From the IMG/VR virus record IMGVR_UViG_3300011116_000673, positions 7,532 to 71,531 of that record: DNA of 64,000 bases; one strand, written 5' to 3'. Below the pieces are notes generated by a model. The model was not told the origin of the DNA and did not search any database. It was given only the letters and a program-made list of their open reading frames with translations. Numbering within the stretch: the first letter of the stretch is position 1; each line of letters opens with the position of its first letter. Below, piece by piece: positions 27,538 to 63,642 of this stretch. The DNA is from a virus. Made by a program: the position numbers and the translations under genes.

Positions 27538-29343
27538 ATGGCCGGATTTGATTACACCAGCAGAGACTACAACTCTATTAGAACTGATTTGTTTGCTAGA
27601 GCAACCGAGATTTTGCCTGAATGGACCTCTCGTGACAGTTCTGATTTTGGTGTTTTGTTCATTGACCTAGTTGCCTACATGGGAGATATCTTTCATTATT
27701 ACTTAGACGAAGCGGCTAAAGAGTCCTTTTTGGATACTGCAACACGTCGTTCATCCCTTTTGGCCATTGCAAGTCTTTTGGATTATTTGCCTCACGGAAG
27801 AACACCAGCTAAAACTAGTATCACATTAAACGCAGCATCTTCTATAGCGACTAATGCTGTTCCTATTTTAATTCCTGCAAATACTGTGTTTCTTGCTCGT
27901 CCATTAATTAGTACTGCAGAGCCAGTTGCGTTCACATCAAACACTTCTATTGCATTTAATGCAGACGGAACTCCAATCCCTGGATACACAACTTATGCTA
28001 AAGCAAGTCCTGCGACACTCCAACTAACTGAAGGAGAGTTGTTTACCGAAACCTTTACTAGCAATGGCGCTCTTTCTCAAAAATTTACGTTGTCTAAATT
28101 AGGAGTGGTTGTAGATTCAATCACGGTAGATGTTGCTGAAGGCCTTAACGGAGCAAACGTTTCTTACGCAAGAGTTGACCGTTTAATTGAAAGCACTAGT
28201 TCTGATCTAGTATTTACCACACGAATACTTGCCACTGATGAACTGGAACTTAGTTTTGGTAATGCAATTCACGGTAAAGTCCCAACAACTAATGCCGTGG
28301 TGACTATTAACTACCGAAGAAGTCGTGGGTCGGCTGGAAACGTTGAAGCAAACTCTGTTAATCAATTTGCTTCATTAACTAACCCATTTGGACCTGCATA
28401 TGACGGAATAGTAATTACTCCAAATGCCTCAAGAGCTTTTGGTGGATCTGATTCTGAAAGCATTGCATCGTTAAAAAACAACATTCCAGCATCGTTTAGA
28501 TCACAAGATAGAGCTGTGTCTTTATCTGATTATGAAGAACTTACTTTGCGAGTTCCAGGAATTGTCAAAGCAAAAGCCGAAGTAGTATCTGGTGCTGCAG
28601 CAAAGCAAGGTGTGATAACTAACAAAGCTAAAACATCGACTGTGGCCCTGTTAACAACAAGTTCAGCACATGGACTGACCACTAACGAGTACGTAGGTGT
28701 ATTTGGTGTTGATGACACCTTTGATGGGACTTATGTAGTAACGGGTACACCTACTCCTACAACGTTTACTTATGCTCTTGTTTCGGCAAGCGTAGCGTCT
28801 GCAAGTGTGGCGTCAACCGCAACATACAAAAATGCGCAAGTTAAAATTTATGCATTAATTAGTCCCGATGTCTACGATGGTTTACTACCTTCTAACCCAA
28901 CCACTAGCCCCCTTACGTTAGACACACATGCAAGAGATCTTGTATACGAATACATTTCTCCACGAGAAATTGTTGGCGTTAATTCTTTAGTCATGCCTTC
29001 TGTAGCGTTGTCTTCTGTAAAAATTACTTGTTCAATTTCTGCATTGTCTAACTTTGTACAAAACTCAGTGCAAGATAGTGTTGAAGACGCAATTAAAGAA
29101 TTATTTGTTTTTGATAAATTGTCTTTTGGACAAACCTTAACGTTGGGTGTTTTGTATAGAACTATTTTGGCTGTTCCTGGTGTGGATTATGTAAACATCA
29201 CACGATTTACTACTGGAAATTCAAACGTTATAGATACTGCAAGTCTTAGCCCCAATGTTCAAGGAGTTCAAGCAGCTGCAAACTCGTTGTTATTGCTAAC
29301 CCAATTGGCAGTTACTGTTACTGGCGGAATTGCTGCTGTCTAA
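27538..29343 (+). CDS. baseplate J/T4 gp6-like wedge protein
   Basis: DYTSRDY, ESFLDTA, FGGSDSES, QDRAVSLSDY, VPGV. Confidence 0.9.
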   Translation: MAGFDYTSRDYNSIRTDLFARATEILPEWTSRDSSDFGVLFIDLVAYMGDIFHYYLDEAAKESFLDTATRRSSLLAIASLLDYLPHGRTPAKTSITLNAASSIATNAVPILIPANTVFLARPLISTAEPVAFTSNTSIAFNADGTPIPGYTTYAKASPATLQLTEGELFTETFTSNGALSQKFTLSKLGVVVDSITVDVAEGLNGANVSYARVDRLIESTSSDLVFTTRILATDELELSFGNAIHGKVPTTNAVVTINYRRSRGSAGNVEANSVNQFASLTNPFGPAYDGIVITPNASRAFGGSDSESIASLKNNIPASFRSQDRAVSLSDYEELTLRVPGIVKAKAEVVSGAAAKQGVITNKAKTSTVALLTTSSAHGLTTNEYVGVFGVDDTFDGTYVVTGTPTPTTFTYALVSASVASASVASTATYKNAQVKIYALISPDVYDGLLPSNPTTSPLTLDTHARDLVYEYISPREIVGVNSLVMPSVALSSVKITCSISALSNFVQNSVQDSVEDAIKELFVFDKLSFGQTLTLGVLYRTILAVPGVDYVNITRFTTGNSNVIDTASLSPNVQGVQAAANSLLLLTQLAVTVTGGIAAV

Positions 29344-30983
29344 TGGCTTTTAAATCTTTTAGAGTTCGTAGGGTTGACCTAGTCGGAAGTCCCGACATCA
29401 ACCCGTTTGGCTCCTATGTTCGTGGAACAGACACAGATGCTCCTGCAGGTTTAACACGTTCAGACGCCGATAGTGCGCTGCGAGCAGATGGGTTTATTGC
29501 AGCTATCCCTGTTTTTGCAAACGCAGAATTTAGCGCAACATCAACAACATATTCTTCTGTTAATTTATCGTGGTCACCTTTTGTGTTAATTAATCCCGCT
29601 ACAAATGGAGTTGGTATTTCAAACATTCAAGCAGTTGTAGTTGTCTACTCATCTACTGGTGCACCAGAAACTGTTGCCGATGGAACTATCATTAAAACAC
29701 AATCGTATAATGACCTAACGTACGCCGTAACTCATCAAAACGTTCCATCTGGTAAATGGGCTTATTACTCTTTGTTCTTATACTACAACCAGAGTGGAGT
29801 TGGAGCATCTGGAGTTAACTGGTATGAAAGGGTTGCAACATTACAAGAATTAGTGCCCAAAGATTATGGATTAACAGAACAACTTTGGAATCGCATCCCC
29901 TCTTATTATCGGGTAAACGACACTTTAGGAGCAGCAACTGACCCGATTGGTTTGTCTCGTGGATACCTGTATCGGTTTTTAGATGTTTTTGGTTTTGAAT
30001 TTAATAAAATGCGAACTTTATTACAATCTGTTATTTCCCAATATGATCCTGAAGAAACAGAAACTGAAAGCATTGAGCAACTATCTAAATTAGTAGGTTT
30101 AGAAGTAACTCCACAGGACATTGGTACATCACGAATCAGAACAATTATTAAAGATATTACTTACTACAGACAACGTAAAGGAACGTTAGATGCGTTTAAA
30201 CAATATCTTGTTGCGCTTACGGGTTCTCAAGTTGACGTTGAAGAGTCAACAAGTAATCCTCGTTATTCCTTTAAGGTCCACGCCGAGCGAGCAAACTTAG
30301 TAGCAGATTCATTATTTGTAGTTGAATCTGGAACTAAAAAATGGAACTTAACAACACAATCTGCTTCTGTTACTTACACAAAATCAGGCAAGTACATTAC
30401 TGTAACTAACTCAGGAAGTTCATCAGCACAATTTGCTTTGATGTCCACCGTGGCTGTTCCAGTAAAAGACAATACCGATTATTGGTCTTCTATTGAAATT
30501 ACAACGGCTTCTGCTGGAAGTATTTGGAGTGCTCAATGGGCATCGGCATCGGCATCATGGTCTAACTGGTCAACCAGTAACCAAAGCAATCAAATTATTC
30601 CTGCAAACCTAAGTCCAGATAATAGAAAAATAATCTTAAAACCAGTACAGAACACCACGGCTATGTTGTATCCAGTTCTTATTTTTGGTTTAGAAGCTGG
30701 AAAATCCACCACAATAACTAAATGGATGGTTGAACCAAACACGTATGGAAGTTTTTTTAACGGAGACACAGATTTTGGTGGATTCGTATATCAAAACAAT
30801 AAATCAGATTACGGTTGGAGCGGCTCTCCATATGCTTCGTACTCAACTTATTCAACCAACCGAACAAAAGTTCAAGAAACTATTGAACTGTTGTTGCCAA
30901 AATTGTTGCCTGTTACTATGCTAATAAATACAGCAACAACTTTAGGACCAACTTCTTTTGATTGGATACCAGGAAAAACATGA
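29343..30983 (+). CDS. baseplate wedge/tail protein (P2 gpI-like central domain)
   Basis: LWNRIPSYYR, LYRFLDVFG, YRQRKGT. Confidence 0.65.
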   Translation: MAFKSFRVRRVDLVGSPDINPFGSYVRGTDTDAPAGLTRSDADSALRADGFIAAIPVFANAEFSATSTTYSSVNLSWSPFVLINPATNGVGISNIQAVVVVYSSTGAPETVADGTIIKTQSYNDLTYAVTHQNVPSGKWAYYSLFLYYNQSGVGASGVNWYERVATLQELVPKDYGLTEQLWNRIPSYYRVNDTLGAATDPIGLSRGYLYRFLDVFGFEFNKMRTLLQSVISQYDPEETETESIEQLSKLVGLEVTPQDIGTSRIRTIIKDITYYRQRKGTLDAFKQYLVALTGSQVDVEESTSNPRYSFKVHAERANLVADSLFVVESGTKKWNLTTQSASVTYTKSGKYITVTNSGSSSAQFALMSTVAVPVKDNTDYWSSIEITTASAGSIWSAQWASASASWSNWSTSNQSNQIIPANLSPDNRKIILKPVQNTTAMLYPVLIFGLEAGKSTTITKWMVEPNTYGSFFNGDTDFGGFVYQNNKSDYGWSGSPYASYSTYSTNRTKVQETIELLLPKLLPVTMLINTATTLGPTSFDWIPGKT

Positions 30984-31234
30984 ACTACATAATTTGTGCA
31001 CTAGCCGTTTACAAACTGTTACAAGTAATTGATTTGCTTTTACCTAAAGAAGCAATGCCTTGGGTTAAAGTTTTAGCGGGAGTTGTTGTCTCTTATGCAG
31101 CTTCGTTTATTGTTGATGTAGAAAACATTTGGTTGGGCGGTTTAGTCATTGCAACACTTGCTGGTTTATGCCACACAGTGCTACGATGTCTGACTTATCT
31201 AGGAGATATGGCACATAACAAGTCTTTAAAATAG
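30980..31234 (+). CDS. small membrane protein
   Basis: Three hydrophobic segments; ATGA overlap. Confidence 0.6.
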   Translation: MNYIICALAVYKLLQVIDLLLPKEAMPWVKVLAGVVVSYAASFIVDVENIWLGGLVIATLAGLCHTVLRCLTYLGDMAHNKSLK

Positions 31235-31243
31235 GAGGACAAC

Positions 31244-31870
31244 ATGCAGAAGTCTAGGTACTACATAATTGCTGGTACTGGTAATTCAAGCGCCAATGTA
31301 ATAGAAACTGGTTTAAGCGACGTGTCGTTGACCGCAAAAGAGTTTGTGGTTCTTTGGACTGGCAAACCCACCGATGGTCAGAGTCGTGTTTACGATTGGC
31401 TCATAGAACATTCAGCGTCATTCACAGTAATTCATTCCGATACAAAAGTTCATCACATTGTTGAGGGTGCTGCAAACAGAGTATTAAAAGTAGACAACCT
31501 TGTTGAAGATAGTTTGGACAGTTACCCTGATGCCACAGTACTTGTTTTATGGGATGAAGTTGCTACTTTTGACCAGCCCACTCAGTTTGTAGAAGAGACC
31601 GTTCTTATGGCTAATTCAAAGGGTATGGAGACTTTAGACCTTTGCAACGGTTTAGTCCCACTAACAGTTGGGGAACCAACAGAAGACAAGCCCGTAGAGG
31701 CCTCTAGGAAGCCCCAGGATGCGTCAAAAAAGGATACCCTTCCCCCTACACAGGATTCAAGTTCTAAGCCCTCTAATGAGCTGTATACGCTTACCTATGT
31801 AAATAACGGTCAACTTGCCACAATTAGTGGTTCTAAGAAAAAAATACTGGAGTTCTTAAACCCACAGTGA
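31244..31870 (+). CDS. hypothetical protein (possible SLOG-like fold)
   Basis: AGGAGG RBS; IIAGTG...VLVLWD pattern. Confidence 0.5.
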   Translation: MQKSRYYIIAGTGNSSANVIETGLSDVSLTAKEFVVLWTGKPTDGQSRVYDWLIEHSASFTVIHSDTKVHHIVEGAANRVLKVDNLVEDSLDSYPDATVLVLWDEVATFDQPTQFVEETVLMANSKGMETLDLCNGLVPLTVGEPTEDKPVEASRKPQDASKKDTLPPTQDSSSKPSNELYTLTYVNNGQLATISGSKKKILEFLNPQ

Positions 31871-31973
31871 GGACGTTGGTAAGAAGGGAAACCAACGCCC
31901 CCACTATCAAGTGGGCCTTGCGCAGTTACTAAATAACTCGCAATAGTAAACAGGAGAAGGGAACTGTTTACTT
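31866..31973 (-). ncRNA. putative antisense small RNA with three hairpins
   Basis: Minus-strand TGT-TATGCT -10 lies 6 nt before hairpin 1; two loops read UUCCCUUCU; stem mismatches resolve as G-U only on the minus strand. Confidence 0.6.
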
Positions 31974-32013
31974 ACCAAAAGCATAACACGATCACTAGAG
32001 AGGATGCAACTAT

Positions 32014-32589
32014 ATGAAACAGAAAAGTGCAGGCGAGAATACCAAATTAGGAGGTCCTTGGATTTCCATACCGACTTGGGTTGTTAAGTACATGAAAGGC
32101 GATTCCATAGCTTTGCACGTATTGACTTGTGCCATTGGTTACATGAATACACATGATCAAACTTTATCTACGACCTATGACGTTTTGGCTAGAGATACCG
32201 GATACAACCGTAGGACTGTGATTAGGGCTATGCATCGTTTGGTTGAGATTGGGGTCATTCGCAAAATTGTAAAGATGGGTAGGCATGGAAAGAACATGCC
32301 AAATTTGTACGTAATTACGTACAATACGGCAGCCGCAGAAGCCTTAATTAATGGGGGTGACTCCAGAGACACTGGGGTATTTAGTAGTGACTCTACAGAC
32401 ACTCCTGCAGTGACTCCAGAGACACTCATATTGAGTGACTCCACAGACACCCAAATAAGAAAGAAAAATAATTATAAGAAGGAAAACCAAAAGAAAGGGA
32501 AGAGTACTAAGAGCTTAGATCTATACTCAACGGACAGTCGGTGGAACCGACAGTTAAAACTTACTGACGGGAGAAACAGCAATGGGTAA
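32014..32589 (+). CDS. HTH replication initiator protein
   Basis: TYDVLARDTGYNRRTVIRAMHRLVEIGVI...PNLYVI HTH; internal iterons; upstream of DnaC/DnaB. Confidence 0.8.
   Translation: MKQKSAGENTKLGGPWISIPTWVVKYMKGDSIALHVLTCAIGYMNTHDQTLSTTYDVLARDTGYNRRTVIRAMHRLVEIGVIRKIVKMGRHGKNMPNLYVITYNTAAAEALINGGDSRDTGVFSSDSTDTPAVTPETLILSDSTDTQIRKKNNYKKENQKKGKSTKSLDLYSTDSRWNRQLKLTDGRNSNG
32357..32500. repeat. putative replication origin: four 16 bp iterons plus A-rich tract
   Basis: GTGACTCYASAGACAC at 32357, 32387, 32410 and 32435, then an A/purine-rich stretch. Confidence 0.8.
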
Positions 32590-32749
32590 AGGTATGCGGT
32601 GGATGTGGGAGTACAGCGAAAAAGAAATAAACGATAAAGGCAAAGAAGTGATAGTGCCCAAATTGTCTTTGACTCCAGTTGAGAACGGCAAAAAAATTAA
32701 AGTCATGTACATCGTTGATAAAAGCAAAAAGAGTTTGGATAATGATTGA
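32582..32749 (+). CDS. small hypothetical protein (not in ORF track)
   Basis: MGKGMRWMWEYSEKEINDKGKEVIVPKLSL...; overlaps both neighbours. Confidence 0.5.
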   Translation: MGKGMRWMWEYSEKEINDKGKEVIVPKLSLTPVENGKKIKVMYIVDKSKKSLDND

Positions 32750-33140
32750 TGATTGGGGCGGTAAAACATTAGGCGCCGACGAACCCGTCAGTAAACCGCC
32801 TGCTAAAAAGAAAAGTTCAACAACTGGATTGGTGGCTTACTTTAGAGATGCAACAATTAGTAAGAACATGACATTAAACGCTCCGGTTAACGGTATGGCT
32901 TTGATGAAAGTATTTAAGAACCTGCAAGAAAAAGGCGTGACAATAGAACAGATTTACAAAATGATTGACGTGTTTGCTCACGAGATTAAACAAACACCAT
33001 TGCCAACAGATGTACCAACGTGGAAAGGGTTTGCGTCGCGCTTGGATGCTTTAAAGAAAAAAGTAGATACACCATTGTCAAAGTACGATTATTCCGAATA
33101 CACTGTTGACAAGAGATTGATGAAAGGTACACATGAGTGA
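32742..33140 (+). CDS. hypothetical replication-module protein
   Basis: ORF from ATG 32742, coupled to the dnaC-like gene. Confidence 0.55.
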   Translation: MIDDWGGKTLGADEPVSKPPAKKKSSTTGLVAYFRDATISKNMTLNAPVNGMALMKVFKNLQEKGVTIEQIYKMIDVFAHEIKQTPLPTDVPTWKGFASRLDALKKKVDTPLSKYDYSEYTVDKRLMKGTHE

Positions 33141-33783
33141 ATGGCACTCTGCAAAGTATTGGCGCAACAGACAACCTATAGAGCGCCTAAAGAATGCGCA
33201 CATACCAAAACGCTTTACTAAAAAAACTTTAGATGATTACAACACGGAATTAGGAAGTCCTGATGTTGTTACATACGTTCGCCAATGGTTAACCAACATT
33301 GAACACAATAAAGAATGCGGAGAAGGTCTTTATTTCTTTGGCGGTTCTGGAAGTGGAAAGACACATGTTGCATGTGGTTTACTTCGTGAGATCGTTTTAA
33401 ATCACCAACTAAGTGGCTTTTTTATAACGGCTGAAAAGTTTGTTGAAGCATCATACGATGAGATGAATCCTGACAATGTTTTATCTGACATGTACTCCGA
33501 CGAATATATGTTGAAGTACATCAACGCTGTGTACGACGTTTTGGTTTTGGACAACCTTGGTTCAGAACGAATGACTGACTTTACAAAGAAGGCAATTACT
33601 TCTATGTTGAATAGTCGCTACGAACAACAGTTAATTACAATCATTACTAGTGAGATTCCATTATCACGTTTAAGCGATATTTATGGACCACGTGTTGCTT
33701 CTATTTTGAGTGAATGTTGCTGCGTGTTGCCTTTCTTAGGAAAGGATTATCGTTTATTGGACCCACATTATGCAGGGGAATGA
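33133..33783 (+). CDS. dnaC: DnaC/IstB-like helicase loader
   Basis: IPKRF, Walker A GGSGSGKT, LVLDNLGSE, SRY, ITS, GKDYR. Confidence 0.88.
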   Translation: MSEWHSAKYWRNRQPIERLKNAHIPKRFTKKTLDDYNTELGSPDVVTYVRQWLTNIEHNKECGEGLYFFGGSGSGKTHVACGLLREIVLNHQLSGFFITAEKFVEASYDEMNPDNVLSDMYSDEYMLKYINAVYDVLVLDNLGSERMTDFTKKAITSMLNSRYEQQLITIITSEIPLSRLSDIYGPRVASILSECCCVLPFLGKDYRLLDPHYAGE

Positions 33784-48363: not shown

Positions 48364-48421
48364 GTGGTTTTCGCTAGCTTCTGGTAGAATTAACACGCAA
48401 CAAATGTCCAAGGAGTCTGCC

Positions 48422-50035
48422 ATGCCCACAAACGATGCAAAAAAGAGAAAAGCATTGGTAGATGACGTTCGTAAACGCAACAAAAAGGACAAGAATCCCG
48501 AAGTTAGGAATAGAAAAGTTACACATATGGACGACTATTTAGCTCAAATGGGTCCAGATAATGTAAAAAAAGCTCTAGCTTCAATTGATCGAGAAGATAG
48601 AAAAACTGGGCATACAAGATTTAAAAAAGAGCAATCCGAAAAACAACGTAAAGCAGCTACTGCACCGCTTAACAGCAAACAGCGAGACAAGTTAATGGCA
48701 GATTTAGAAGTAGCAGGCGGATCTTATAAAGAAATAGAACCAAGTGAGGAAACTACCATGGCATCTAAGAAAAAAGGAACAAAGGTTTCCGATAAAAAAT
48801 CAAAAAAGACTAAAGGCAAAGCCGCTTCCACGGGTAAAACTGATGCCGTAGATGCTGCTGGTGCTAAAGCAAAAGATGCCGTAGATGCCGCTAAAGATCG
48901 AAATCCAATTGTTCAACCTGCAAGTGAGGGTGATAAACAAGGACCACCAAGTCCAGCAGGTTCCAAAGACAACACTGGATACGGTACATCTACACAACGT
49001 ACTCCTAAACCATCTTCAAAAGACAGTGCTCCTGCAAGCACTGACGACGATGGTACGCCGTTTGATGGTGATGCTTACGCGAAAAGTGAAGAAGGAAAAG
49101 CAAGGAGAGCAGAAGGGATGGCAAAAGCTAAAAACAAAACTCCATTGCGTGCAGCAGAAGATGCTGATGCAAGAGCAGGAAGCCCTTCTGGACGAGCAGA
49201 CAGAGCAGCTCAACAATGGAAACAAAAAAGACTTCGTGCAGGTGCAGAGGGTACAAGTGGAAAATCTGGTCCTCTTTTTAGACAAAACGACACTACAACA
49301 GAAATGCCAGCAACAGGAAACTATTCAGATGAAGCTCGCACAGCACGCATTAAAGAATTAGCAAACAAAAATCGTTACAATGAAAGTGATGGCATTAACA
49401 AAGACCCAAACAGCAAGGGCGAAATGCCAGACGATCCAAGACCACGATCAAAACCAACAGTTTTGACTACACCAACTAAAGATGGTGAAATGCCAAAAGC
49501 GGACAAACCTGGATTTATGAGCCGTTTGCGTAGCCGCATTGGTTCATTTACTTCACGACCTGGTGCTCCTGCCGCTCCTGCCGCACCACCAACACCACCA
49601 ACACCACCAAGTGGTAGTGGCGGAGGCGCAACCCCACCAACACCGCCAAGTGGCGGAGGATATGTTCCAGCAGATGAGCCAGCGGTTACACAATCACAAG
49701 ACACAAAAAATGGTAAACAAACACAGACAGCACCAGCCGGAGCATCGATTAATTTTGCTCCGCAAATTGGAGGAGATGACAACAGTGTTGGTAAAGGTGC
49801 GTCAGGCGGCGGTCAAATAACTGGAAGAGATTCTGCTGGACGTGATTTTGTTAAAGGAAACACCCACAATCAAAAAATTAATGCAGGATACGGACCAGTA
49901 ACTGCAACAACTTCAGGTAGAGCAACTAGTTCAGGTAAAGGTGGCGTTACAGCCAGCACTACAGGAACTGCGTCATCACATCCACGTGCTCAAAACGCAA
50001 GTCGTGGTGGTCGCCCAACATCAAGAAAGAAATAA
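48422..50035 (+). CDS. large basic, probably disordered protein
   Basis: AAGGAG RBS before ATG 48422; K/A/P/G/S-rich; PPTPP repeats. Confidence 0.7.
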   Translation: MPTNDAKKRKALVDDVRKRNKKDKNPEVRNRKVTHMDDYLAQMGPDNVKKALASIDREDRKTGHTRFKKEQSEKQRKAATAPLNSKQRDKLMADLEVAGGSYKEIEPSEETTMASKKKGTKVSDKKSKKTKGKAASTGKTDAVDAAGAKAKDAVDAAKDRNPIVQPASEGDKQGPPSPAGSKDNTGYGTSTQRTPKPSSKDSAPASTDDDGTPFDGDAYAKSEEGKARRAEGMAKAKNKTPLRAAEDADARAGSPSGRADRAAQQWKQKRLRAGAEGTSGKSGPLFRQNDTTTEMPATGNYSDEARTARIKELANKNRYNESDGINKDPNSKGEMPDDPRPRSKPTVLTTPTKDGEMPKADKPGFMSRLRSRIGSFTSRPGAPAAPAAPPTPPTPPSGSGGGATPPTPPSGGGYVPADEPAVTQSQDTKNGKQTQTAPAGASINFAPQIGGDDNSVGKGASGGGQITGRDSAGRDFVKGNTHNQKINAGYGPVTATTSGRATSSGKGGVTASTTGTASSHPRAQNASRGGRPTSRKK

Positions 50036-57514: not shown

Positions 57515-57546
57515 GACCCTATGTAATTTGTAGGGTCTTTTTTATT
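57515..57546 (+). terminator. intrinsic terminator
   Basis: GACCCTAT...GTAGGGTC followed by TTTTTT. Confidence 0.7.
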
Positions 57547-57566
57547 AACCGACCAAAGGATGATGA

Positions 57567-63470: not shown

Positions 63471-63572
63471 CGAGGTAGCCCTTTACCCTCCTTCAGGGTT
63501 ACCCGAAAAGAGTCTGCCTGTGAACACTTTCTTTCAGGGGTTGTTAGCAGTTAATAGCAGGCAGACTTTTTT
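63471..63572 (+). ncRNA. putative structured RNA: anti-SD-loop hairpin plus long terminator-like stem
   Basis: GGTAGCCCT-[TTACCCTCCTTC]-AGGGTTACC; AAAAGAGTCTGCCTG...CAGGCAGACTTTTTT; G-U pairs on the + strand. Confidence 0.5.
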
Positions 63573-63642
63573 AATAAATTGTTGTAATGTCGAGTTGTGA
63601 TCTGCAACACGCACCCACTAATCTGTTGTCAAGGAGGAAACA

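Follow-up and report, generated by a model that had tools for sequence, protein, structure and literature searches.

Control of replication by antisense RNA is textbook knowledge for plasmids and for phage lambda. CopA of plasmid R1, RNA I of ColE1, and RNA III of pIP501/pAMbeta1 are constitutive antisense RNAs that lie opposite rep leaders, with loops that are thought to start the pairing; the loops of such plasmid counter-transcripts are short and diverge as incompatibility determinants, and a YUNR U-turn motif is typical of fast antisense loops. The OOP RNA of lambda covers much of the 3′ end of cII and has a defined terminator. The 6C small RNAs are recognized by loops that hold at least six C. 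As described in the available part of PMC3985674, the lambda pO promoter gives rise to a short leftward antisense RNA beside the origin, which acts on the cII mRNA through RNase III, and pO firing interferes with rightward transcription into O. The targets of the 6C small RNA include a replication gene, according to the accessible portion of PMC6486639.

The DNA analyzed here, referred to as the window, is a 64-kb stretch from a 71.5-kb phage genome in which all protein genes are on the plus strand. A minus-strand element was located at 31856-31990, between a gene designated X (208 aa) and an O-like, iteron-bearing initiator. The assignment to a "large myovirus" in the preliminary description proved to be loose, as the genome measures 71.5 kb and the sole tail-type hint checked was a weak P2 baseplate-protein-I domain match in a 546-aa ORF of the tail region (29343-30983), two genes before gene X. 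The features of the locus are as follows.

31179..31187, plus strand: candidate gene X promoter TGCTACGAT, within the 90-aa ORF that precedes X, at its 3′ end
31244..31870, plus strand: gene X, 208 aa, always upstream of the element
31859..31917, minus strand: hairpin 3, from the fold, with a 15-bp inner stem (31905->31866) and the apical loop UUCCCUUCUU (31881-31890)
31918..31943, minus strand: hairpin 2, from the fold, UUGCG...CGCAA, 5+5 bp with one bulge and a variable loop
31945..31972, minus strand: hairpin 1, from the fold, with a 9-bp stem and the 10-nt all-pyrimidine loop UUCCCUUCUC (31954-31963)
31980..31988, minus strand: extended -10 box TGTTATGCT, pattern TGnTAnnnT, 26-34 nt before the initiator ATG
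32004..32009, minus strand: -35-like box TTGCAT, 18 nt before the -10 hexamer
32014..32589, plus strand: replication initiator, winged-helix/O-like, matching PHROG replication-initiation and O-like families (best E 3e-11)
32356-32456, within the initiator gene: four 23-nt iterons, family D1

In its arrangement, the locus resembles lambda pO/OOP as far as the part of PMC3985674 at hand describes that system: a backward promoter motif stands directly before an O-type, iteron-bearing initiator in an otherwise forward operon, the predicted antisense RNA enters the 3′ end of the upstream gene, and the putative promoter faces oncoming transcription bound for the initiator and the origin. Unlike OOP, the RNA predicted here has an overlap of ~10 nt with X and no visible U-tract terminator, its two or three hairpins are long and bear conserved pyrimidine loops similar to the 16S tail, and the upstream gene is SLOG-like, not a cII-type regulator. 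No sequence relation to OOP was found, nor an Rfam match to it; at the gathering score, Rfam gave 0 matches in the window and seven related loci, and at E up to 10 only three chance microRNA models were returned, at 15 bits. The plasmid counter-transcripts share with this locus a small stem-loop antisense RNA, here predicted, opposite the leader of a replication gene. They differ in that neither an attenuator terminator nor a leader peptide can be seen here between the hairpins and the initiator start, and in that the loops here are 10-19 nt long, purine-free, and conserved between diverged phages; as they contain no purine, the YUNR U-turn motif is absent from them.

The extended -10 box that the preliminary description had placed on the minus strand at 31980-31988 was confirmed in the window (TGTTATGCT, 31988->31980), and the -35-like box was found to sit between the initiator SD (31998-32004) and the initiator ATG (32014). 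The three hairpins of that description were recovered as well, with a spacing from the -10 box of seven rather than six nucleotides, and its observations that both outer stems carry the same loop and that A-C mismatches in the plus-strand stem become G-U pairs on the minus strand held for the loops of hairpins 1 and 3, which share the identical pyrimidine motif UUCCCUUCU, and for both mismatches of hairpin 3. Hairpin 3 is the part of the element that is kept in all seven clades; it is extended by an outer helix of 5-7 bp (31915-31911 with 31865-31861) and overlaps the last codons of gene X together with its TGA stop (31868-31870). The 64-kb window contains TTCCCTTCT exactly twice, each time on the minus strand and within one of the outer hairpin loops. 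Because two or more matches were reached in 13 of 100 shuffles, this count alone is not significant, and the telling feature of TTCCCTTCT is its placement in two loops 73 nt apart, not its number. Folding of both strands, which had been proposed as a check, gave a minimum free energy (MFE) of -53.2 kcal/mol for the minus strand (z -5.3) vs. -41.9 kcal/mol for the plus strand (z -4.1). The minus-strand value ranked second lowest among 397 tiled 146-nt segments of the genome, and the difference between the strands (-11.3) was equalled or exceeded in 15 of the 397, so that the energy difference by itself is not exceptional.

The element was found at the same place in all initiator relatives examined with upstream sequence, and it forms a family whose distinct sequences number at least 34, spread over seven clades. 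Within clade 1 (15 sequences), compensatory double changes occurred in 12 of 39 predicted pairs and the loops were invariant, that of hairpin 1 showing no variation over all 15 sequences. Trained on 14 clade-1 sequences, a covariance model found one copy in the window and full-length minus-strand matches at the expected place in clades 5, 4, 6, and 2 (E 4e-7 to 0.08); in 12 loci with only distant HTH relatives, it gave zero matches. Across 26 distinct sequences, in an alignment that was fitted to the model and hence favors the structure, 97.7% of 902 cells paired and double changes were seen in 33 of 40 pairs. These pairing and double-change values were reached by none of 500 shuffles, and slid controls paired at 40–47%. 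Compensatory changes, counted by cell and partly on the model-fitted alignment, affected 6 of 8 model pairs in hairpin 1 (helix 1), 9 of 10 in hairpin 2 (helix 2), and, in hairpin 3, 7 of 7 pairs of helix 3 and 11 of 15 pairs of helix 4. The stems are rewritten between relatives and the loops are held constant. Covariation and loop conservation among relatives, on which the preliminary description had made its case depend, were thus both found, and these data confirmed that the element is a real conserved structure.

The conserved structure belongs to the minus strand. In the helices of clade 1, 64 cells read as G-U on the minus strand and one did so on the plus strand, the G-U pairs of hairpin 3 were on the minus strand only, and inspection by eye of the big hairpin of clades 3, 4, 5, 6, and 7 showed mismatches that are A-C on the plus strand. 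When 1x1 mismatches were counted symmetrically for both strands in 38 distinct regions, the result was 45 for the minus strand vs. 13 for the plus strand, a figure that understates the asymmetry because this 1x1 no-GU count spans coding flanks and misses some known mismatches. The minus strand was also the more stable one in the consensus fold of all six other clades and in the single-sequence fold of 33 of the 38 regions.

These counts bear on the proposal that the plus-strand mRNA is the functional molecule, its orphan SD-like purine loops holding the 30S subunit as a standby or loading site, or serving as a 5′ stabilizer, with the minus-strand features being incidental. SD-like 5′ stabilizers (STAB-SD) are described in the Bacillus literature. 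The plus-strand loops are SD-like, and in clades 3 and 7 they complement the 16S tail perfectly over 11-14 nt and lack a start codon at SD distance; the plus strand folds well too, at the energy given above, and a standby site upstream of the ribosome-binding site that is blocked by a small RNA is known from tisB/IstR-1, as reported in the available part of PMC6690012. However, the stem mismatches are nearly all A-C on this strand (64:1 in clade 1), the conserved backward promoter motif (-10 in 24 of 24, -35 in 16 of 24 representatives) is left unexplained, and, as the ribosome site of the initiator is unsequestered in the plus-strand fold of the window, a standby site is not obviously needed. 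We consider a plus-strand function a slim possibility, and it is compatible with the antisense model as the target side of the same switch. With IstR-1/tisB, as far as the accessible text of PMC6690012 covers it, the locus would share pairing far upstream of the ribosome-binding site, where the 30S subunit first loads, the SD-like mRNA loops here lying 50-130 nt upstream of the initiator start. Unlike in that case, the window shows no visible structure at the ribosome site of the initiator, and a toxin-antitoxin pair is not involved.

Single-stranded DNA could be another source of the strand asymmetry, since G-T is the least destabilizing mismatch in DNA, and a distance of ~380 nt separates the element from the iterons at the presumed origin. 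Hairpins in minus-strand single-stranded DNA, acting as a priming or strand-initiation signal, or palindromes bound by a protein, would in that case function with no RNA involved. Against this stand the maintenance of a promoter motif at a fixed distance and the free rewriting of the stems with pairing kept, which argues against sequence-specific protein binding to them. Moreover, the phage encodes its own replication set of DnaB-type helicase, loader, and primase, and systems so equipped are not known to need structured priming signals. An explanation at the DNA level therefore appears very improbable to us.

To follow the putative promoter across the family, the pattern TGnTAnnnT was located on the minus strand at the corresponding position of 24 of 24 representatives, covering all clades, and it was invariant in clade 1. 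A TTGnnn element 16-19 nt upstream of the -10 box was present in 16 of the 24, namely, in clades 1, 4, 5, and 6, in two of three members of clade 2, and in one of eight in clades 3/7. TGnTAnnnT is rarer than expected in the window (81 vs. 166 +/- 13 in shuffles), a depletion that is expected if the host polymerase reads the motif; the backward promoter is a prediction from this sequence motif. Judged from promoter spacing only, the RNA would start at approximately 31973-31975. A search of public sequencing runs with 30800-33200 listed no RNA run. At the other end, no U-tract follows hairpin 3, where the tail reads GUUUAAGAAC, the 8 nt after the last hairpin held 0-3 U in 19 of 19 sequences from clades 1, 2, 4, 5, and 6, and a terminator scan gave no minus-strand terminator at the element. 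The tails of clade 3 are U-richer (UAUUUU and UAUUUCU), and the phage's own plus-strand terminators have clear T-runs.

On the plus strand, TGnTAnnnT was present in the X-initiator gap in none of 19 representatives, suggesting that the initiator is most likely co-transcribed with X; the small RNA would then be fully complementary to the intergenic stretch of the mRNA. A plus-strand TGnTAnnnT, the candidate X promoter, from which the mRNA targeted by the antisense RNA would be made, was observed 59-82 nt upstream of X in 13 of the 19 representatives and was absent in the other 6, and because it overlaps a coding sequence, its conservation may be partly at the protein level. In one clade (L081), a plus-strand hairpin followed by TTATTT was seen by eye just before the element and could end the X transcript; it was not called by the terminator scan.

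The genomic address of the element is fixed. Homologues of gene X (29–85% identity) stood directly upstream of it in 19 of 19 other representatives examined, and the order X-RNA-initiator was constant in all clades. Gene X had no Pfam or PHROG match. Its predicted model (pLDDT 80.5) consists of an N-terminal Rossmann-like domain that is SLOG-type-like, a disordered linker, and a small C-terminal domain, and Foldseek returned weak similarities to the Moco carrier protein, LOG, and DprA (best E 6.8e-4, TM 0.44-0.57). The initiator additionally gave a sub-threshold match to Pfam HTH_36. The DnaB and the DNA polymerase of the phage are closest to those of Streptomyces phages, with 32–35% identity; the comparable region of Streptomyces phage Alone3, the closest isolate for these two proteins, contained no match to covariance model R1. 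A DNA search with 31200-32700 and protein searches with gene X and the initiator found no match in 50,697 isolate phage records, and a scan of one prokaryotic genome per species returned nothing beyond two remote HTH relatives, one in a Metabacillus and one in a Phycisphaerales MAG, and thus identified no host. When viral contigs were scanned for the twin-loop pattern, 27 stretches were obtained, of which 11 were contigs already known; the other 16 were rejected, being without flanking stems and resembling purine-rich coding or repeat sequence.

The loops were compared with the 3′ tail of 16S rRNA, GAUCACCUCCUUUCU(A), which is printed for several bacteria in the available part of PMC6288834. 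In clades 3 and 7, the loop contains ACCUCCUUUCU, 11 nt on which 8 of 8 sequences agree despite varying stems, and single members of these clades match 12-14 nt of GAUCACCUCCUUUCU(A), the 14 nt being reached in L059. The loops of the other clades carry the pyrimidine variant UCCC(C)UUCU, and those of the window, with UUCCCUUCU, share just a CCUUCU-like core with the tail.

Such loops could make the RNA a trans-acting riboregulator or decoy, pairing with the SD sequences of phage or host and lowering translation, or binding a factor that recognizes the tail. The identity of the loops of clades 3 and 7 to the tail is in accord with this, as is the concerted change of the twin loops in clades 1, 4, and 5, which is expected for one shared partner; C-rich loop pairing without a chaperone is, moreover, established for the actinobacterial 6C small RNA, as described in the accessible part of PMC6486639. 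The present RNA would also resemble 6C in having hairpins with C-rich loops that pair purine-rich mRNA segments without a chaperone (same partial source) and in belonging to a phage whose DnaB and polymerase are nearest to those of Streptomyces phages. It differs from 6C in that its loops have 3-4 consecutive C and many U, and in that a phage encodes it, in cis-antisense orientation to a replication operon; the lack of an Rfam match includes 6C. The best-pairing translation starts in the genome were those of strong-SD genes, 7 of the best 10 lying in the small-gene block at 56-64 kb; as any pyrimidine oligomer favors strong SDs, this enrichment is not specific. The ribosome site of the initiator ranked only 27th of 108 genes as a loop target, and the loops fitted the initiator site of their own clade no better than others (2nd to 13th of 14, in a cross-clade comparison that includes a few loops with no pyrimidine core), and this site was rejected as a specific loop target on the grounds of its rank and the lack of cross-clade co-evolution. 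Within the initiator gene, 32475-32490 matches the loop region of hairpin 3 at 15 of 16 positions; this match was treated as chance because it is kept only in close relatives and falls in purine-rich Lys/Glu codons. In the 71.5-kb genome, the loops are matched in full at the two cis sites alone, no second co-varying site of the repeated-target kind known for the c4/CI antisense RNAs of P1, P7, and P4 was found within 1.5-3 kb in 15 representatives, Rfam gave no C4 match, and the clade-1 loops are imperfect copies of the tail. The suggestion in the preliminary description that the loops bind SD-like or purine-rich sites is therefore upheld insofar as the loop copies the 16S tail in two clades, but no specific target emerged. 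Overall, a trans-acting riboregulator or decoy seems to us unlikely, though worth keeping in view.

A more particular form of trans action, which we hold to be rather improbable, is a phage-made RNA copy of the 16S 3′ tail that masks SD sequences or acts as a decoy for a tail-recognizing host factor or defense nuclease. If it masked Shine-Dalgarno sequences, it would do so in proportion to their strength, and its position before the initiator would merely time its synthesis. T4 RegB achieves shut-off of early mRNA, and SD masking by a phage RNA would be the RNA counterpart of this shut-off. The titles and abstracts listed by a literature search described no phage RNA mimicking the anti-SD tail.

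Taken together, the data described above are consistent with a ~118-nt cis-encoded minus-strand antisense RNA, placed like lambda pO/oop and acting on the X-initiator transcript, a reading of the sequence that we judge to have about an even chance of being correct. Under this cis-antisense model, host RNA polymerase would start at the extended -10 promoter facing backward from the initiator gene, and the RNA would begin ~40 nt upstream of the initiator ATG, cross the gap, and run on into the last codons of X; as modelled, it overlaps the X stop codon and about three X codons (~10 nt). The RNA is predicted to fold into two or three stable hairpins, whose exposed all-pyrimidine loops would engage the mRNA first, at its purine loops. 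Formation of the full duplex may then change the fate of the mRNA, either through double-strand cleavage or by keeping the 30S subunit off the SD-like loops, and firing of the backward promoter may also impede polymerases entering the initiator gene. The outcome would be a tuning of the amount of initiator and hence of phage replication. Of the antisense control of an iteron-type initiator put forward in the preliminary description, the conserved minus-strand structure, the -10 box, and an O-like initiator with iterons are in place, and the control itself is a prediction. In clades 1, 4, and 5, both loops change together (CCC vs. CCCC), and the loop sequence is constant across clades. Since complementarity is automatic for a purely cis-acting antisense RNA, neither this constancy nor the concerted change is needed for it, which points to an additional common partner.

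Conserved small RNA genes have rarely been documented in uncultured environmental phages, and the family described here, which is absent from Rfam, combines clear covariation, a readable promoter motif, and a fixed genomic address. An RNA resembling the 16S tail and lying opposite a perfect orphan ribosome-binding sequence could couple initiator synthesis to ribosome availability, or it could alternatively interfere directly with translation initiation. As the module of X, RNA, and iteron-bearing initiator spans less than 1.5 kb, it could be rebuilt in a laboratory host.

The window comes from one contig of 71,531 bp (G+C content 41.7%), on which all credible genes of the phage lie on the plus strand. 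The element lies in the 143-nt gap between gene X (31244-31870, 208 aa) and a 191-aa initiator ORF (32014-32589), which matched the PHROG replication-initiation and O-like families (best E value 3e-11). The genes after this ORF encode a DnaC-like loader, a DnaB-like helicase, a primase, and a DNA polymerase. Four 23-nt direct repeats were found within the initiator's own coding sequence (32356-32456), the arrangement of lambda gene O, where the iterons likewise lie inside the gene. Among isolates, Streptomyces phages have the closest DnaB and DNA polymerase (32-35% identity), and the predicted TANNNT-type promoter fits Actinobacteria. Gene X had no Pfam or PHROG match, and neither gene X, the initiator, nor the region matched anything in a collection of 50,697 isolate phage records. 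A structure model of gene X (pLDDT 80.5) has a Rossmann-like domain at its N-terminus, for which Foldseek gave weak matches to SLOG-type folds (Moco carrier protein, LOG, DprA, and ShosA). Ahead of gene X lies a 90-aa hydrophobic ORF (30962-31234) with DNA-level conservation across clades, the block ACACTTGCTGG recurring upstream of X; a small membrane protein is also present after the minor tail gene in Streptomyces phage Alone3.

The preliminary description of the gap was found to be accurate, as the sequence and folds confirmed the box and three minus-strand hairpins:

31988 to 31980, minus strand: extended -10 box TGTTATGCT, read from the sequence; the first hairpin begins 7 nt later
Hairpin 1, minus strand: 9-bp stem with loop UUCCCUUCUC (sequence and fold)
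Hairpin 2, minus strand: bulged 10-bp stem (sequence and fold)
Hairpin 3, minus strand: 15-bp stem with loop UUCCCUUCUU, lengthened by an outer helix extending into the last codons of gene X (sequence and fold)

The fold energy of the element was -53.2 kcal/mol on the minus strand (z -5.3) versus -41.9 kcal/mol on the plus strand (z -4.1). Only 1 of 397 tiled genome windows was more stable than the element on the minus strand; the difference between the strands, taken alone, was matched by 15 of the 397. The single more stable 146-nt window (~49530-49675; -58.5 versus -46.7 kcal/mol on the plus strand) sits within a 543-aa ORF (48404-50035).

A scan with the initiator protein yielded 11 loci in viral contigs, and a scan with a nine-sequence protein alignment yielded a further 30 metagenome-contig and 42 viral-contig loci, many of them the same contigs under two names. 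The loci were grouped by eye into seven clades, across which initiator identity to the window ranged from 100% down to about 33%. A common layout was observed in every locus whose sequence extends upstream and whose initiator match reached E 1e-22 or better (L050 does not extend upstream, and L058 breaks off within the loop). A gene X homologue ends, and directly after its stop codon stands a long hairpin rich in G+C, whose loop of 10-19 nt, read on the plus strand, is rich in purines; then come one or two more hairpins and a minus-strand TGnTAnnnT box, with the initiator start about 26-56 nt beyond. The layout was absent from the ten loci with remote HTH matches only (L061-L068, L109, and L110). 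Since homologues of gene X (29-85% identity) stand before the element in each of the 19 other representatives that were examined, X, RNA, and initiator form a conserved three-part module.

RNAalifold predicted 39 pairs from 15 clade-1 sequences, with compensatory double changes in 12. A covariance model made from 14 clade-1 sequences found the only copy of the 64-kb window at 31856-31990 on the minus strand (163 bits). It also gave full-length minus-strand matches, each where expected, in clade 5 (E 4e-7), clade 4 (1e-5 to 2e-3), clade 6 (1.6e-3), and clade 2 (5e-3 to 0.08). No match to this model was obtained in eight sources of clades 3 and 7 or in twelve distant loci. When 26 distinct sequences were aligned to the model, which biases the alignment toward the structure, standard pairs filled 97.7% of 902 cells and both sides had changed in 33 of 40 pairs; these pairing values were reached by none of 500 shuffles, and slid controls paired at 40-47%. 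The same compensatory changes were visible in independent MAFFT alignments. A separate alignment of eight sequences from clades 3 and 7 gave 21 predicted pairs, five with double changes, and an 11-nt loop block identical in all eight. Thus, the covariation and conserved loop proposed earlier as a check were both observed, the loops being invariant within clade 1. We consider it very likely that the element is a real minus-strand structured RNA gene.

The assignment to the minus strand, made originally from G-U versus A-C mismatches, was also borne out. The clade-1 helices contained 505 Watson-Crick cells, 64 cells pairing as G-U on the minus strand, which makes them A-C on the other, and only 1 of the reverse type; 12 cells held other mismatches, due mostly to two sequences being misaligned by one column. 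In the big hairpin of the other clades, read by eye, all mismatches were again of the minus-strand G-U type. A strand-symmetric count, in which 38 distinct regions (230-270 nt, coding flanks included) were folded with G-U forbidden and the 1x1 mismatches then classified, gave 45 minus, 13 plus, and 26 other. The minus strand was more stable in the consensus fold of all six other clades and in the single-sequence fold of 33 of the 38 regions. The G-U asymmetry and the fold stabilities together indicate that it is the minus strand, as a single strand, on which selection acts. The same hairpins also form on the plus strand, where they contain internal mismatches; it is improbable that a plus-strand leader role is the primary one, and an element acting at the DNA level is more improbable still.

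All 24 representatives carry a minus-strand TGnTAnnnT at the corresponding position, with TTGnnn 16-19 nt upstream in 16 of the 24, exactly between the initiator Shine-Dalgarno (SD) sequence and start codon. Over both strands of the window, the extended -10 pattern TGNTANNNT is frequent in itself, with 81 matches, but strongly depleted, at half the number in shuffles (166 +/- 13, higher in 100 of 100), a depletion expected if the host polymerase reads the motif and one that looks like promoter-motif avoidance. A similar extended -10-like repeat, TTGTTGTAATGT, occurs on the plus strand in three intergenic gaps of the small-gene block (~59950, 62900, and 63590), and ordinary hairpin-plus-T-run terminators lie on that strand near 57520-57560 and 63520-63580; the two sets probably represent early promoters and early terminators. 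The last hairpin of the element is followed by only 0-3 U residues in clades 1, 2, 4, 5, and 6, clade 3 tails being U-richer, and the predicted RNA may be about 118 nt or a longer antisense transcript running into gene X.

No plus-strand TGnTAnnnT was found in the X-initiator gap of any of 19 representatives, and a sigma-70 consensus scan of the gap gave nothing convincing; therefore, the initiator would most simply be co-transcribed with X, and the small RNA would be complementary to the intercistronic stretch. In 13 of the 19, a plus-strand TGnTAnnnT occurs 59-82 nt upstream of gene X, in a stretch that is coding. In one clade (L081, ~1300-1340), a plus-strand hairpin followed by TTATTT was seen by eye in the last gene X codons, directly before the element; it was not flagged by the terminator scan, and may end the X transcript there.

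The loops are what is unusual about the element; in clade 1, they are invariant while the stems vary. The minus-strand loops of the terminal hairpin are as follows:

Clade 1: UUCCCUUCUU
Clade 2: UUUUCCUUCCUUCUUGA or UUUUCCCUUCUUGA
Clade 3: CCACCUCCUUUCU
Clade 4: UUUCCCCUUCUUUG
Clade 5: UUUCUUCCCCUUUUU
Clade 6: UUGCCCUUCU
Clade 7: ACCUCCUUUCU

Clades 1, 4, and 5 have a second, promoter-adjoining hairpin whose loop core is that of the same clade's terminal loop (CCC in clade 1 and CCCC in clades 4 and 5), so the two loops change together. Over 11-14 nt, the loops of clades 3 and 7 exactly match the 16S rRNA 3' tail GAUCACCUCCUUUCU(A), printed for several bacteria in PMC6288834, and the corresponding plus-strand loop is a perfect extended SD sequence with no start codon at SD distance. 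Constancy of the loops is not required of a purely cis-antisense pair, whose complementarity is automatic. A common partner is therefore probable for the loops or for their plus-strand complements; most obviously, the minus-strand RNA could meet SD sequences, and the plus-strand mRNA the tail of the ribosome itself. A search of the genome for a specific loop target found none, the only full loop matches being the two cis sites, and no second co-varying site was found within 1.5-3 kb. As a pairing site for the loops, the initiator ribosome site ranked 27th of 108 genes, and the loops fitted their own clade's initiator site no better than those of other clades. The best-pairing translation starts are those of strong-SD genes, seven of the ten best lying in the 56-64-kb small-gene block; this clustering is a lead, not evidence. 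A 15/16 match to the hairpin-3 loop and upper stem at 32475-32490, inside the initiator gene in an A-rich stretch just past the iterons, is probably chance in Lys/Glu codons, since it is kept in close relatives only. A trans-acting anti-SD RNA or decoy is, in our estimate, unlikely.

The reading that we prefer is a small minus-strand RNA that would be made from its own promoter, antisense to the X-initiator junction; we rate a cis-antisense regulatory mechanism there at even odds. The predicted RNA has the same placement as that of lambda pO/oop, where, according to PMC3985674, the short leftward RNA from pO is an antisense RNA acting on cII via RNase III, and pO firing hampers transcription that runs rightward to O and the origin. 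The SD-like loops of the mRNA and the tail-like loops of the small RNA suggest a possible competition between the small RNA and the 30S subunit for the same loops of the mRNA, in a standby-like control for which tisB/IstR-1 is a precedent (PMC6690012). Neither the window nor seven related loci had a match in Rfam 15, and no description of such an RNA was found in the literature searched. By analogy, the phage RNA would work like OOP and the plasmid counter-transcripts, yet stand outside every curated family; it differs from them in being without a clear terminator, in its conserved pyrimidine, 16S-tail-like loops, and in having gene X as its partner.
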